Sequence record: OX457022
Length of the DNA: 44,532 nucleotides
Origin: Escherichia phage vB_EcoP-CC1
Strand: one strand, 5' to 3'
Below, piece by piece: positions 3,003 to 32,627 of the stretch. The notes below the pieces were generated by a model. The model saw only the letters and a program-made list of their open reading frames with translations. It was not told the DNA's origin and did not search any database. Both the position numbers and the translations under genes were made by a program. How positions within the stretch are numbered: position 1 is the stretch's first letter; each line of letters opens with the position of its first letter.

Positions 3003-3950
3003 ATGAATATCTTTGAGTTCCTAGGTCTTCCAGAAGATCACCGCAACCACCCATTCATGTTGGTGAAACATCGTGGTGAAGTCCCTGAGAAGAAATTAAC
3101 CTTTCCATGTTATGCACAGGTGAAACGAGATGGAATATTCAGTGCTGTTGTGGTGCGTAATGATGGTGCTGTTGCCATCTTTGGTCGTACTGGTAAGAAG
3201 CTCGCAAATGTTGAAGCCTTGGAAAAGACATTTAGTGTATTTCCTGTCGGGTTGTATCTTGGTGAGTTGCAATCTATGGCTGTTGATGTTTATCTTGAAG
3301 CTCTATCAGGAGTGGTAAACCCTAATCGTACAGAGCCACTTGATTTCATAGGCCAGCAGATTAAAGACAACCTGTATATCGACTTCTTCGATATGTTAAC
3401 CATTAAGGCATTCCATGATGGATTCACTGATGTTTCTTATCTCAAACGTTACGATGCTTTACATCGTCGCATCGGCACTCATCTTAGCGGGTACAACGCT
3501 ATTCTTCCTATTACTCCTTGCCATAATGAGAGAGAGGTTGAAGCGTTTGCTCAAGAGCAAATAGATGCAGGCCGAGAGGGTGCTGTCTTTAAACTTGACT
3601 GTGATTATGAAGCAGGCCATAAAGGATATCGTCAGACTAAAGAAGTCCGTAAGGTAACTTATGACCTTACTTGTATTGGCTTTGAAGAAGGCAAAGGTAA
3701 GTACAAGGGTAAGGTAGCTAACCTCATTTTCAAATGGAAAGGAGGCAAGACAATCAAAGCTATGCTAGGTAAGGGGTGGACTCATGCAGATGCAGAACAG
3801 ATGTTCCATGATATTAAACATGGCGGACGATTGAATGTCATTGGTAAAATCTTTGAAGTCAAAGGTCTTCAGGATTCAAGCAAGGGCAACATTCGTCAGC
3901 CCAAAGCGGGAGAATTAAGACATGACAAAGATGAACCAGATTTCTTTTGA
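3003..3950 (+). CDS. ATP-dependent DNA ligase
   Basis: Adenylation motif KxDG present as VKRDGIFSAVV; ~315 aa; ORF track start 2985, likely start ATG 3003. Confidence 0.8.
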   Translation: MNIFEFLGLPEDHRNHPFMLVKHRGEVPEKKLTFPCYAQVKRDGIFSAVVVRNDGAVAIFGRTGKKLANVEALEKTFSVFPVGLYLGELQSMAVDVYLEALSGVVNPNRTEPLDFIGQQIKDNLYIDFFDMLTIKAFHDGFTDVSYLKRYDALHRRIGTHLSGYNAILPITPCHNEREVEAFAQEQIDAGREGAVFKLDCDYEAGHKGYRQTKEVRKVTYDLTCIGFEEGKGKYKGKVANLIFKWKGGKTIKAMLGKGWTHADAEQMFHDIKHGGRLNVIGKIFEVKGLQDSSKGNIRQPKAGELRHDKDEPDFF

Positions 3951-29221: not shown

Positions 29222-29377
29222 ATGATTTGGATCCACACGTATGGTGTAGGGTCATTCAAGAAGAATGTACTCAGGAAGATCCATGAGTCCGAGGAATCAG
29301 CCTTAGCCAGCCAGAAGGTACTTGGTGGTACTATCCAGTGCTACATGAAGAAGCCACAAGGTTTTGACTTAGTGTAA
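29222..29377 (+). CDS. hypothetical small protein (51 aa)
   Basis: AAAGGAGG RBS 5 nt upstream of ATG 29222 (ORF track begins 29171). Confidence 0.4.
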   Translation: MIWIHTYGVGSFKKNVLRKIHESEESALASQKVLGGTIQCYMKKPQGFDLV

Positions 29378-29430
29378 CCAAAGGTGGTCACAAAGTAACC
29401 AAAGTCAAAATTTTGATGTAGGCGTGTGTC

Positions 29431-29475
29431 AGCCCTCTCGCCCTCGCCCTCGCCGGGTTGTCCCCATAGGGTGGC
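29431..29475. other. GC-rich block in terminal region ((CCCTCG)n then CCCCATAGGG)
   Basis: Non-coding; CCCCATAGGG resembles the CCCCCATAGGGGG element recalled near the T7 left end; candidate terminal-repeat/packaging region. Confidence 0.4.
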
Positions 29476-30092
29476 CTGAGGGAATCCGTCTTCGACGGGC
29501 AGGGCTGATGTACTCCTTGTACTAGCTTAGTAGTACACAAGGGCTGGCCTTTTGTTTTGCCATGTACTAGCAAGGTGGAACGCTGGAGAGCGCCTAGGAC
29601 GGCCTAGGGATGGGCTTAGTGGTGGACAAGGTGATTGCCTTAGTGAAGCCTCTTAGTGCATTCCTGAGGCCATTCAGGGCGTTTATGAGATATTGACAGG
29701 GTGTGCGTGGGTGGGCTATCTGTTCGTTTCGTTCACTCCGCTTGCGCTACGTTCACTCGCTCACGTGTACCTTAGGTTGTTCCTTGATGGATAGCTTAGG
29801 TTAGCCTTAGTGGACTACCTTAGTTATAACCTTAGTGCTTATCTTAGTAATAGCTTAGTAATGTACCTTAGTAAGTCTTAGTGTCTTCTCTTAGTGATTG
29901 CACATGCAAGCATGTAAGATGCCATTAGGTCGCGGTCGGTAGACCGCTAAAGAAAGAGAATAGTAATAAGATGCAGTAGGAGGAACACCAGAAACCTAGC
30001 CAACCTAACCTATCCTAGCTCTGTATCTATTGCTTTTCCTTAGTCTAACATGTGAGACAACCTAGATTTATCTTAGTGATGATAGCTTAGTG

Positions 30093-30121
30093 TTGACAAG
30101 GCCATCTCAATGTAATACTAT
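30093..30121 (+). promoter_or_regulatory. candidate host sigma70 early promoter (TTGACA-17-TACTAT)
   Basis: Perfect -35, 5/6 -10, 17-nt spacer; upstream of early small ORFs. Confidence 0.45.
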
Positions 30122-30193
30122 TCATCACGTAGGCAGCACTGAGGTGCTTAGTAGCCAGCTAGTAAGGCATACGAAGAGACTAGTGCCTGCATT

Positions 30194-30209
30194 GCTCTTT
30201 AACAATTTG
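30194..30209 (+). promoter_or_regulatory. RNase-III-site-like element GCTCTTTAACAATTTG (copy 1)
   Basis: 16-mer repeated exactly at 30805; resembles recalled T7 R0.3 site GCTCTTTAACAATCTGG. Confidence 0.4.
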
Positions 30210-30263
30210 CTTAGTGTAACCTATGTATGCCGTGGTTAATTACTTATTGAATGAGGGTTAACT

Positions 30264-30359
30264 ATGAATTACGAAGAAATGTATGAAGACTACTTCAATT
30301 CACTTGATGAAGGAGAAGAAGCATTGTCCTTTGCTGAGTTTATGGAGGCTTTATCATGA
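30264..30359 (+). CDS. hypothetical early protein (31 aa, acidic)
   Basis: Short ORF with GAGGG upstream; first ORF after terminal region. Confidence 0.3.
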   Translation: MNYEEMYEDYFNSLDEGEEALSFAEFMEALS

Positions 30360-30532
30360 TTCTGAATAACCGTGAACTATCCATTCTCTTCACCTTGTTG
30401 TGCTATATGATTCGTAACAACGAATTACTTACAGACGATGAACTGGCACTATATCACCGTTTCCTTAACGAAGGTTGGGTCGATACAGTTAACCAGAAAC
30501 GTGACTTGATGAAGGAGTTAAGCAATGTTTAA
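30356..30532 (+). CDS. hypothetical early protein (58 aa)
   Basis: ATGA overlap with previous ORF; stop overlaps next ORF start. Confidence 0.35.
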   Translation: MILNNRELSILFTLLCYMIRNNELLTDDELALYHRFLNEGWVDTVNQKRDLMKELSNV

Positions 30533-30734
30533 ACATGAGATTTACACTGATTGCAGTAAATCGGCTAAAGCTATCTGCGATTTGTACAAGGCAGAATGCC
30601 AGACGTACAACCTCAACGATGGTACTGAGATGTTTTATCTTCAGTTTGAAAGCAAGTTATCTCACAAACGAGTGATTAACAGCCTGAATCAACACTCCTT
30701 GGAGTGGGAAGAAGTAAATAGCAATAAAGTTTAA
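30525..30734 (+). CDS. hypothetical early protein (69 aa)
   Basis: GAAGGAG RBS 8 nt upstream. Confidence 0.45.
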   Translation: MFKHEIYTDCSKSAKAICDLYKAECQTYNLNDGTEMFYLQFESKLSHKRVINSLNQHSLEWEEVNSNKV

Positions 30735-30743
30735 ATTAACTAT

Positions 30744-30772
30744 TGACAGCCACGGCATACAAGGTTACATTA
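30744..30772 (+). promoter_or_regulatory. candidate host sigma70 promoter (TTGACA-17-TACATT) upstream of ocr
   Basis: Perfect -35, 4/6 -10. Confidence 0.4.
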
Positions 30773-30804
30773 AGCATCAAGACGGCGACGTCTTTAAACA
30801 TCCC

Positions 30805-30820
30805 GCTCTTTAACAATTTG
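30805..30820 (+). promoter_or_regulatory. RNase-III-site-like element GCTCTTTAACAATTTG (copy 2)
   Basis: Exact repeat of 30194-30209, 94 nt upstream of ocr ATG, same relative position as R0.3 in T7. Confidence 0.45.
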
Positions 30821-30913
30821 GATGGTAGCTTCTTAGTCTGGATAGGTTAAACCTAGGGGATTCTCTTGAGTCTCCTATAATGTAACCTAACTAACTAAAT
30901 GAGGATTAATAAC

Positions 30914-31273
30914 ATGACTATGTCTAATATGACTTACTCTCAGGTTTACAACACCGCTCATGCTGCATTAGTTGAACGTATCTGGAATGATGCTATTGAT
31001 TGTATCGATAACGCACATGATGCAATCCATGAGGTAGCGGACAGTGCTGTACCAATCTATTATGCTGACATCTTCTCAGTGATGGCGAGTGAAGGTATTG
31101 ATCACTTCTTCGAAGACTCCGGCCTGATGCCAGATACTAAGGATGTAACGGTCGTACTACAAGCCCGTATTTATGAACAACTCACCATTGATTTATGGGA
31201 ACGTGTTCAAGATATGATTGTTGCGTACACCAATTACGCTGAGGATTCAGAAGAAGAAGAAGAGGAAGAATAA
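30914..31273 (+). CDS. ocr: Ocr (T7 gene 0.3-like DNA-mimic anti-restriction protein)
   Basis: MTMSNMTY...[42 protein letters not shown]...[14 protein letters not shown] plus poly-Glu tail matches recalled T7 Ocr nearly residue for residue; GAGGA RBS. Confidence 0.85.
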
Positions 31274-31275
31274 GG

Positions 31276-31389
31276 ATGGAAAAGCAATATAACTTTATCT
31301 TTTCAGACGGTGTGACCCTGAAGTGTTCCCTGCGTTTCGCACAGATTCGCGAGGAAGTGCTAGGAACTACATACAAACTATTTAGCTGA
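31276..31389 (+). CDS. hypothetical small protein (37 aa)
   Basis: Short ORF right after ocr; its 3' end contains promoter-like sequence at 31380. Confidence 0.25.
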   Translation: MEKQYNFIFSDGVTLKCSLRFAQIREEVLGTTYKLFS

Positions 31390-31401
31390 CACTATAAGAG
31401 A
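31380..31401 (+). promoter_or_regulatory. variant phage promoter-like sequence (ATTTAGCTGACACTATAAGAG)
   Basis: 16/17 match to SP6-type -17 to -1 but A at +1; upstream of RNAP gene. Confidence 0.4.
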
Positions 31402-31462
31402 GGGTTTAACAGGGCGCTCTTGCGAGAGTGCCCGATTAAATCAACTTAACGAGATATTAAAT

Positions 31463-31639
31463 ATGAAATACATACTGATTGCTATGTTTTCTGGCTTCAT
31501 TGGCTATGCTGGTGCTTCTTATGACAACTACAGAAGTAAGCAATTGGCTGCTGAAAAGTGGGATAAAACCTATTTTGCTTGTATGAAACAAGGTAATTTG
31601 ATGCAAGATTGCATACTTAAAGCGCACAGCGAAGAGTGA
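31463..31639 (+). CDS. hypothetical small membrane protein (58 aa)
   Basis: Below ORF-track cutoff; N-terminal hydrophobic segment ILIAMFSGFIGYAGA; weak RBS. Confidence 0.35.
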   Translation: MKYILIAMFSGFIGYAGASYDNYRSKQLAAEKWDKTYFACMKQGNLMQDCILKAHSEE

Positions 31640-31703
31640 TGAGCCTATAGCCTACTTAAGTGGGCTATGTGAACACCATTCATTAACTCAAAAGGTGACT
31701 ATT

Positions 31704-32627
31704 ATGACTACTGAAAACACCCTCCTGTCTGTTCGTGAAGCTGCAACCGCTGAGATCAAGCAACACTTAGACAATATCGGCACTTCTTACATCAAAGTTG
31801 GCGCTTGTCTTAATGAGTTACGCGGTGACTTTGAAGGTCAAAAAGACTTTTTGGCTTATGTAGAATCAGAATTTGGAATCAAGAAAGCACAATGTTACAA
31901 GCTGATGAGTGTAGCCCGTGTCTTTGAAGGCGATGATCGCTTTAAAGGCGTGGCGATGCGTGTAATGCTGGCACTTGTTCCTTTCGCTGATGAAAATATC
32001 ATCATGGAGAAAGCCGCAGAACTTGCCGCAGCGGGCAAGCTGGACACTAATGCCGTAAATGCCCTGATTGATCCTAAGAAAGAGACAAAGGCCGAGACGG
32101 TACAATCTAAGGCTGAGGCGGTAAAACCGCAGGAGAATGCGACTGAGGCCGCAGAAACTATGCAAGGACATGCGACCTTTGAGGATTTCATCTTAGAGAA
32201 GGCGAAAGAGGAATTACAAAGTGTGCCGCCAGTAAGTGAGTCGGGTAACGACGAATCCGCACCGTGGGAAGATGAAAGCAAGCCGGAAGCGCCAAAGGCC
32301 GCGCCACTGGATAACACGGCTAACACGGAGAACGCCGCTATGTCTGGCCTACTGGCACAAATTAAGGCACTGACTGAGCAATTACAGGCAGCTAACGACC
32401 GCATCGCCGCCCTAACCAGTGCACGGGAAGGTAAGAAAGCGGCTGCGCCTATGCTTCCGCAGTTTAAATCCTCTTGCTTCTACGCTCGCTTAGGCTTGAG
32501 CGCCGAGGAAGCAACGAAGAAAACAGCAGTGAATAAGGCACGCCGTGAACTGGTTAAACTAGGGTATGGTGAAGGTCATGAGGCATGGCCTTTGATCTCT
32601 GAGGCAGTAGAAGAATTAACTAAGTAA
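31704..32627 (+). CDS. hypothetical early protein (307 aa), Ala/Glu/Lys-rich C-terminal half
   Basis: ATG 31704 with AAAGG upstream (ORF track start is GTG 31695); occupies slot between ocr and RNAP; no kinase motifs recognised. Confidence 0.6.
   Translation: MTTENTLLSVREAATAEIKQHLDNIGTSYIKVGACLNELRGDFEGQKDFLAYVESEFGIKKAQCYKLMSVARVFEGDDRFKGVAMRVMLALVPFADENIIMEKAAELAAAGKLDTNAVNALIDPKKETKAETVQSKAEAVKPQENATEAAETMQGHATFEDFILEKAKEELQSVPPVSESGNDESAPWEDESKPEAPKAAPLDNTANTENAAMSGLLAQIKALTEQLQAANDRIAALTSAREGKKAAAPMLPQFKSSCFYARLGLSAEEATKKTAVNKARRELVKLGYGEGHEAWPLISEAVEELTK

Follow-up and report, generated by a model that had tools for sequence, protein, structure and literature searches.

In phage T7, the leftmost genes are driven by host promoters and make up the class I region, which comprises the promoters A1-A3, a boxA-like sequence, the R0.3 RNase III site, gene 0.3 (ocr), and genes 0.4-0.7. 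One boxA-like sequence lies at position 813, between A3 and ocr, a structured leader precedes ocr, and small host-directed proteins are encoded nearby. No genes are placed between the T7 early promoters and ocr. Here, a different arrangement is described for a 44,532-nucleotide (nt) sequence of Escherichia phage vB_EcoP-CC1 (OX457022), hereafter the window, in which three small overlapping open reading frames (ORF1, ORF2, and ORF3; positions 30264-30734) occupy the interval between an early promoter and ocr. An original prediction, made from the sequence alone, had taken them for translationally coupled genes of a T7-like phage with no recognisable function, which would be the first genes expressed and whose position is enriched for host-takeover and anti-defence proteins.

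The closest described counterparts are carried by phages SP6, K1E, and K1-5. SP6 gp2, gp3, and gp4 and K1E/K1-5 gp1 and gp2 are orthologues of ORF1-3, with the same order and the same overlapping starts: ORF1 corresponds to SP6 gp2 and to an unannotated K1E ORF, ORF2 to SP6 gp3 and K1E gp1, and ORF3 to the family of SP6 gp4 and K1E gp2. K1E additionally has gp1.5 between the ORF2/ORF3 pair and the cassettes gp2.5 and gp2.8 before ocr. No publication that characterises the leftmost early operon of the SP6/K1E-like phages was found, and literature searches on SP6/K1E early genes returned no functional work beyond the accessory-gene screen of Silas et al. (bioRxiv 10.1101/2023.04.06.535777). The present analysis establishes ORF1-3 as real genes, and they are almost certainly early genes, the first that the entering genome expresses. 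Their products are, with fair probability, small protein-binding effectors directed against proteins of the host or of resident elements, the variable helices of ORF3 forming the contested surface.

An early operon of three overlapping genes

Positions 30000-30900 of the window match Escherichia phage vB_EcoP-CC2 (OX638290.1), a 44,531-bp Vectrevirus (Autographiviridae, Molineuxvirinae), at 100% over their full length, and the window is the same sequence in rotated form. The phage is thus assigned to the SP6/K1E/K1-5 group and not to the T7 group, and the earlier term 'T7-like' was imprecise. Searched against every ORF within the first 12 kb of T7 and of MmP1, hidden Markov models of the three families gave no homologues, the best E-values being 0.37 (ORF3 family), 0.085 (ORF2), and 0.022 (ORF1), at 3.8-7.7 bits. 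The record OX638290.1 already lists ORF1-3, as hypothetical proteins.

Window position ~29436 is where the physical left ends of K1E, SP6, and Raoultella phage P3a align, which puts the promoter P1 (see below) at a distance of ~657 nt from the end of the genome and ORF1 at ~828 nt. By this mapping ORF1-3 are the leftmost genes and are therefore, as had been proposed, very probably the first to be transcribed by host RNA polymerase. By analogy with T7, the left end carrying them presumably enters the cell first. Leftward of ORF1, only repeat-rich non-coding DNA is present. Within 825 nt (29436-30260) there are 17 copies of the hexamer CTTAGT, a density of 20.6 per kb vs 0.41 per kb elsewhere, among them an eight-copy array at 29806-29890 with 10-13 nt spacing that adjoins the genome left end. 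This array resembles the short repeat arrays near the ends of the T7 genome.

All three genes lie on the plus strand: ORF1 at 30264-30359 (31 amino acids, aa), ORF2 at 30356-30532 (58 aa), and ORF3 at 30525-30734 (69 aa). Stop and start codons overlap in ATGA (4 nt) at the ORF1/ORF2 junction and in ATGTTTAA (8 nt) at the ORF2/ORF3 junction, and a Shine-Dalgarno sequence precedes each start by 5-7 nt (GAGGG, GGAGG, and AAGGAG, respectively). The same overlaps are kept in Citrobacter phage CrRp3, SP6, and other relatives; the Klebsiella-phage relatives have a 3-nt gap instead. With overlapping starts, internal Shine-Dalgarno sites, and conservation of the overlaps in relatives, ORF1-3 form a translationally coupled polycistron, and the predicted sizes, coordinates, and coupling were recovered exactly.

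For the comparison of loci, 16 IMG/VR loci were fetched in addition to K1E and P3a, and presence counts are given over 19 SP6-like loci. Conservation in relatives, the absence of which the original prediction had named among its refuting conditions, was found for all three genes: ORF2 and ORF3 are a syntenic pair in 19/19 loci, and ORF1 is optional and present in 5/19. Each protein matches a PHROG of unknown function, namely phrog_2061 for ORF1 (E = 3e-15), phrog_9275 for ORF2 (2.3e-39), and phrog_6403 for ORF3 (1.4e-27). Searches with tblastn retrieved 52 phage records for ORF1, 101 for ORF2, and 47 for ORF3 of the window type. The ratio of nonsynonymous to synonymous substitution rates (dN/dS; Nei-Gojobori method, fetched SP6-like loci) is 0.04-0.14 for ORF2 and 0.10-0.34 for ORF1; for ORF3, compared among sequences of its own type, it is 0.10-0.30. 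All three genes are under purifying selection.

These data bear on the possibility that ORF1-3 are not translated at all and that the region is a leader or regulatory RNA upstream of ocr with incidental frames. In its favour, ORF1 has only 31 codons, the leader is structured, and a promoter scan taken alone does not rise above chance. Against it, all three ORFs have canonical Shine-Dalgarno sites at the correct spacing, dN/dS lies far below 1 with many synonymous changes, and homologues can still be recognised as proteins after the similarity of the DNA has gone (SP6, Klebsiella phages, and YdfB of K-12). Moreover, the AlphaFold2 (AF2) model of ORF3 reaches a predicted local distance difference test score (pLDDT) of 96.6, a near-identical protein has an expression phenotype, and an Rfam search of 29300-31700 matched no RNA family. 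On this coding evidence the non-coding reading is effectively refuted and is given only a negligible probability.

Two further frames in the region were considered as coding sequence and rejected. An embedded +2-frame ORF of 46 aa (30535-30675) has an intact frame in near-identical relatives only. As for the ATG at 30224, a start there would not extend ORF1 at its N-terminus, since its frame differs here and is closed by a TAA. The segment 30224-30262 is a conserved leader in which this ATG starts a mini-ORF (MYAVVNYLLNEG, then stop), and it forms a hairpin that covers the Shine-Dalgarno site of ORF1. In relatives the mini-ORF can be in frame with ORF1 or ORF2, so that ORFs or annotations become too long (45 and 72-77 aa); since the frame relation varies in this way, the segment is regarded as leader sequence.

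The three encoded proteins

ORF1 is a strongly acidic peptide with 10 acidic (D+E) and no basic (K+R) residues among its 31 aa. Judged by sequence similarity, it belongs to the YdfB family (PHROG 2061): residues 1-31 align to positions 17-47 of the phrog_2061 profile, and BLASTP against YdfB of E. coli K-12 gives 19/28 identical residues (68%; pair E = 1e-11). YdfB is encoded by the Qin cryptic prophage in the dicBF operon (ydfA-ydfB-ydfC-dicF-dicB-ydfD) and has the core motif YE-YF--L-EGEEALSF-EF in common with ORF1. Both are small, very acidic, and promoter-proximal in the early operon of a mobile element, ORF1 being the first gene after P1 and its boxA. They differ in length (31 aa vs 42 aa), ORF1 being without the N-terminal 7 and the C-terminal 7 residues, and in setting, ORF1 residing in a virulent SP6-like phage and YdfB in a lambdoid prophage. 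YdfB has no known function, and literature searches for functional work on it found none. The earlier statement of 'no recognisable function' holds only in part, ORF1 being a member of the YdfB family.

Outside the SP6-like phages, tblastn matches of ORF1 fall in temperate phages, in a gene annotated 'YdfB'. YdfB-like genes stand directly after the repressor gene in Qin, in lambdoid phage 689R5, and in a Klebsiella pneumoniae plasmid that carries lambdoid-type repressor and replication genes. Homologues were also found on 538 plasmids, 485 of them conjugative, with individually weak E-values for so short a query. In IncX4 plasmids the homologue is the C-terminal part of a 72-aa ORF; in pEC1283 this ORF (3568-3786) bears the YdfB motif at its C-terminus (…YEKYFDSLKDGDECLSFKDFIECLC) and lies ~1.7 kb upstream of the relaxosome genes taxA/taxC. 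The ORF1 cassette also occurs in early-left operons of the dicBF type in lambdoid prophages and on conjugative plasmids.

Within the SP6-like phages, ORF1 is 99% identical in nucleotide sequence to CrRp3, whereas the adjoining ORF2 is only 89% identical to it. ORF2, ORF3, P2 (the second promoter, see below), and ocr are instead 98-100% identical to P3a, in which the ORF1 slot holds an unrelated gene (77 aa as annotated, ~63 aa from an internal ATG, starting MVKLYRSKY) with relatives in LL11 and UAB_Phi78. The breakpoint of this mosaic is sharp and coincides with the ATGA junction of ORF1 and ORF2. From the identity pattern with CrRp3 and P3a, ORF1 is clearly an exchangeable cassette.

By eye, ORF1 is predicted to be a mini-protein of helix-turn-helix shape. 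Its assignment as an EF-hand was rejected: PF23564 scored 16.7 bits vs a 27-bit cut-off, and the segment L14-E25 departs from the canonical 12-residue loop (D-x-[DNS]-x-[DNS]-G-x-[ILV]-x-x-x-E) by having L as its first and E as its sixth residue. A DNA mimic of the ocr type was likewise rejected, as ORF1 has 31 aa compared with the ~110-120 aa of that elongated dimer and matches neither PF08684 nor phrog_2568; only the neighbouring gene at 30914-31273 matches PF08684.

ORF2 is a core early gene of the SP6-like phages and is present in every one of the 19 loci. Structure prediction, which had been suggested as a check, gave a three-helix bundle (AF2 with 44 homologues; pLDDT 85.7; helices 5-20, 27-38, and 41-56). 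An exhaustive profile search of 1.84 billion representatives retrieved four short relatives (clusters at E < 1e-10) and two spurious repeat proteins, and by this measure ORF2 constitutes an orphan family confined to SP6-like phages. ORF2 was not recognised as a helix-turn-helix DNA-binding protein: it matches no such family and is acidic, with an isoelectric point (pI) of 4.8.

The AF2 model of ORF3 (pLDDT 96.6, predicted template modelling score 0.83) has the order beta-alpha-beta-beta-alpha-beta, which is the ferredoxin-like topology (beta1-alpha1-beta2-beta3-alpha2-beta4). Small ferredoxin-like alpha+beta domains such as CutA, PII-like, ACT, and the HisG C-terminal domain form the nearest known fold class. 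No sequence signature of the CutA, PII, or ACT superfamilies was found in ORF3 with Pfam or PDB profiles. A fold search returned generic ferredoxin-like matches only; in BFVD, ORF3 matched its own family of uncharacterised Autographiviridae proteins (CrRp3, Pectobacterium PP1, and Proteus PM116) and, weakly, a 91-aa protein of MmP1.

A first search with ORF3 gave only six close clusters, and a profile built from distant syntenic homologues extended the family to 86 clusters, with the longest contigs at ~42-46 kb and none longer. The family, to which SP6 gp4 and K1E gp2 belong, comprises several sequence types that have in common only an N-terminal M-F/Y-K/Q-H-E and a C-terminal E-E-V-I-T-N-K segment. 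The window type is a rarer one, with 14 phage records at >= 80% identity, and is 16-32% identical to the K1E and SP6 types. A K1E-type query matched 65 records, of which a few from Klebsiella and Lelliottia were also matched by the window-type query; these counts (47 and 65, with few in common), set against 101 records for ORF2, are consistent with co-occurrence of the two genes. Over eight representatives at <70% identity, the two helices have column entropies of 1.95 and 1.97 bits, compared with 0.92 bits for strand b1 and 0.97 bits for b4. One face of ORF3 is hypervariable, and this helical face can be read as an arms-race surface, serving either target binding or escape from sensors.

A phenotype is available for a near-identical protein. 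In the screen of Silas et al., 200 accessory genes of phages were tried in wild E. coli, and orf24 of phage VEc3, expressed alone, inhibited growth of E. coli ECOR61 through a prophage-encoded Icd-like cell-death or growth-arrest system (bioRxiv 10.1101/2023.04.06.535777). ORF3 is identical to orf24 (AUE22229.1; MG251390.1, 1130..1339; Supplementary File 3 of the screen) at 68/69 positions, with S11 here and N11 in orf24, and the ECOR61 phenotype is reported for the N11 allele of VEc3 only. In both phages the gene comes next to the ORF2 homologue, on its downstream side, and ahead of ocr, and the screen placed orf24 in a phage accessory region that also holds ocr (bioRxiv 10.1101/2023.04.06.535777). 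Near-identity and phenotype together suggest that ORF3 is stable as a protein and can be recognised by immune systems of bacteria or prophages such as that of ECOR61.

The responding system of ECOR61 is a six-gene prophage unit with a primase and an Icd-like division inhibitor, termed a superinfection-exclusion system by its authors (bioRxiv 10.1101/2023.04.06.535777). This opens the possibility that ORF1-3 act against competitors, that is, co-infecting phages, satellites, or resident prophages, and that the ECOR61 response is the countermeasure of a resident element. Sensing of orf24 by a prophage-borne unit so described fits this idea, as does the occurrence of ORF1 homologues on prophages and plasmids themselves. 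On the other side, no exclusion phenotype has been reported, and the ECOR61 effect was reconstituted only in muted form outside the native strain (bioRxiv 10.1101/2023.04.06.535777). In addition, by their sequences, AF2 models, and composition, the three proteins are soluble and small and are without the membrane segment typical of exclusion proteins. An action against competitors instead of the host is held to be improbable.

Promoters, boxA copies, and the ocr leader

The candidate sigma70 promoter predicted at 30093 was found there. P1 (30093-30121, plus strand; TTGACA-17-TACTAT, 10/12 consensus positions) is the leftmost putative early promoter of the sigma70 type. The consensus scan alone is not significant (4 sites vs 5.6 expected); among the related loci examined, most but not all have the pattern TTGACA-N16-18-TANNNT ahead of their first boxA. 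Downstream of P1, in the leader of the ORF1-3 operon, lies boxA-1 (30194-30208, plus strand), an rrn-type antitermination box with the sequence GCTCTTTAACAATTT. This 15-mer has exactly two copies in the window (30194 and 30805), where 0 would be expected, and is identical to a 15-mer of the E. coli rrnB leader that is known as the rrn boxA. Each copy is placed downstream of one of the two promoters, P1 and P2. The 12-nt core GCTCTTTAACAA is found in all SP6-like loci examined, in 1-3 copies each, and in the loci with inspected flanks it precedes each early cassette, whereas T7 has its one boxA-like sequence. Such placement suggests Nus-dependent antitermination of early transcription. Several copies have complementary flanks (cctatcaaggc ... 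gtcttgatagg), so that boxA would sit in a hairpin loop.

The original prediction correctly put P1 ahead of the three genes and omitted a second promoter and boxA between ORF3 and ocr. P2 (30743-30771, plus strand; TTGACA-17-TACATT, 10/12 consensus positions) is followed by boxA-2 (30805-30819, plus strand), the second rrn-identical copy, and ocr thus also has a transcription unit of its own. The module of P2 and boxA is conserved but mobile, being located in K1E (1601-1674) before gp2.5 and not before ocr. Repeated leaders of this type may act as recombination linkers for cassette exchange. The further K1E cassettes gp2.5 and gp2.8 each have their own boxA.

The ocr gene (30914-31273, plus strand) encodes the DNA-mimic anti-restriction protein (PF08684, E = 2.5e-42; phrog_2568) and is annotated 'Overcome classical restriction gp0.3' in OX638290.1. 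Its leader contains a long interrupted hairpin at 30829-30904 on the plus strand. The RNA of 30778-30920 folds with a minimum free energy of -41 kcal/mol (z = -4.06), and 0/200 shuffles fold as well. The predicted hairpin fits an RNase III-type site and is a candidate for processing; the site proposed before ocr is borne out as a structure, its cleavage being a prediction.

Taken together, these elements allow a sequence of events to be proposed. Host sigma70 RNA polymerase would start at P1 and read through the rrn-type boxA, presumably recruiting NusB/S10 to resist termination. A polycistronic ORF1-ORF2-ORF3 mRNA would be made before the remaining genome is drawn in, and P2 and boxA-2 would then drive ocr.

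Beyond ocr, several neighbouring features were observed. A 37-aa ORF directly 3' of ocr (31276-31389) is highly conserved (phrog_11746, E = 4.7e-30; K1E gp4), and an ORF of 58 aa (31463-31639), whose N-terminus is hydrophobic (MKYILIAMFSGFIGYAGA...), matched neither PHROG nor Pfam families. They are followed by an early gene of 310 aa (31695-32627, plus strand), a homologue of K1E gp6 (phrog_4571, E = 2.8e-130). OX638290.1 was linearised inside this gene, its record end corresponding to window position 32524, and it annotates there, in place of the gene, an antisense ORF of 169 aa (31895-32404, minus strand) that is probably an annotation artefact.

Possible roles of the operon and their significance

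The three products are small and soluble and have no enzymatic motifs, and they would act by binding proteins of the host or of mobile elements in the first minutes of infection. Several results weigh against this effector reading. ORF1, ORF2, and ORF3 have neither a biochemical function nor a binding partner on record. None of them was assigned to a significant family by Pfam, NCBIfam, or PADLOC, PDB sequence profiles gave nothing below E = 0.18, and the defence and toxin-antitoxin models of PADLOC-DB gave no match at E <= 1. The library of the published screen also contained orf172, an SP6-type orthologue of ORF2, and orf96, a K1E-type relative of ORF3; neither appears in its list of genes with phenotypes, in which orf24 figures solely as a trigger of cell death (bioRxiv 10.1101/2023.04.06.535777). 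The supplementary log of the screen is without per-gene fitness values, and the follow-up paper mentions neither orf172 nor orf96. With orf24 acting as a trigger only and the other two unlisted, the screen lends no support to a counter-defence role. The anti-defence idea is plausible from the position of the genes and is unsupported by the one relevant screen. Finally, ORF2 is under very strong purifying selection and is universally present, a pattern expected of an early housekeeping gene more than of an accessory gene in an arms race.

ORF2 and ORF3 may instead be core phage housekeeping genes and not antagonists of host or defence, acting for example in the early-to-middle switch, in modulation of host RNA polymerase or of Nus antitermination, or in transcription-coupled genome entry. 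The invariable pairing of the two genes across the 19 loci, the low dN/dS of ORF2, and their location between two leaders with boxA all agree with such a function, as does the absence of a listed phenotype for orf172 expressed alone in wild E. coli. It is opposed by the acidity of ORF2 and its failure to match a helix-turn-helix family, by the hypervariable helices of ORF3, which are unusual for a housekeeping regulator, and by K1E, which tolerates a gene inserted between the pair. Furthermore, T7-like phages manage without homologues, as far as the first 12 kb of T7 and MmP1 are concerned. We regard a housekeeping role as rather unlikely, yet as the main alternative to the effector reading.

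Binding of host or resident-element proteins by small early effectors remains the favoured reading. In a more specific and decidedly speculative form, ORF2, as a constrained three-helix partner, and ORF3 would constitute an undescribed two-protein effector module universal to SP6-like phages. The helical face of ORF3 would neutralise polymorphic immunity proteins of hosts, prophages, or satellites and be sensed by them in turn, and ORF1/YdfB would be a first-in acidic mini-protein that blocks a conserved host factor on DNA entry. If this were true, the K-12 y-gene ydfB would gain a function.

The operon as such is already known: its genes are annotated, contained in PHROGs, and numbered in SP6 and K1E, and one has a published phenotype. 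The additions made here are modest, namely the link between ORF1 and YdfB, the map of fold and variability in ORF3, the strict synteny of ORF2 and ORF3, and the architecture of one boxA per cassette, and none of them would surprise a specialist. The SP6/K1E-like group includes many isolates that infect K1-capsulated, uropathogenic, and avian-pathogenic E. coli. The natural sequence types of ORF3 offer a ready panel for mapping how a phage protein is recognised by the prophage-borne Icd-like system. Moreover, ORF1 ties ydfB, a gene of a K-12 prophage, to virulent phages and conjugative plasmids, which points to a common function in early entry.

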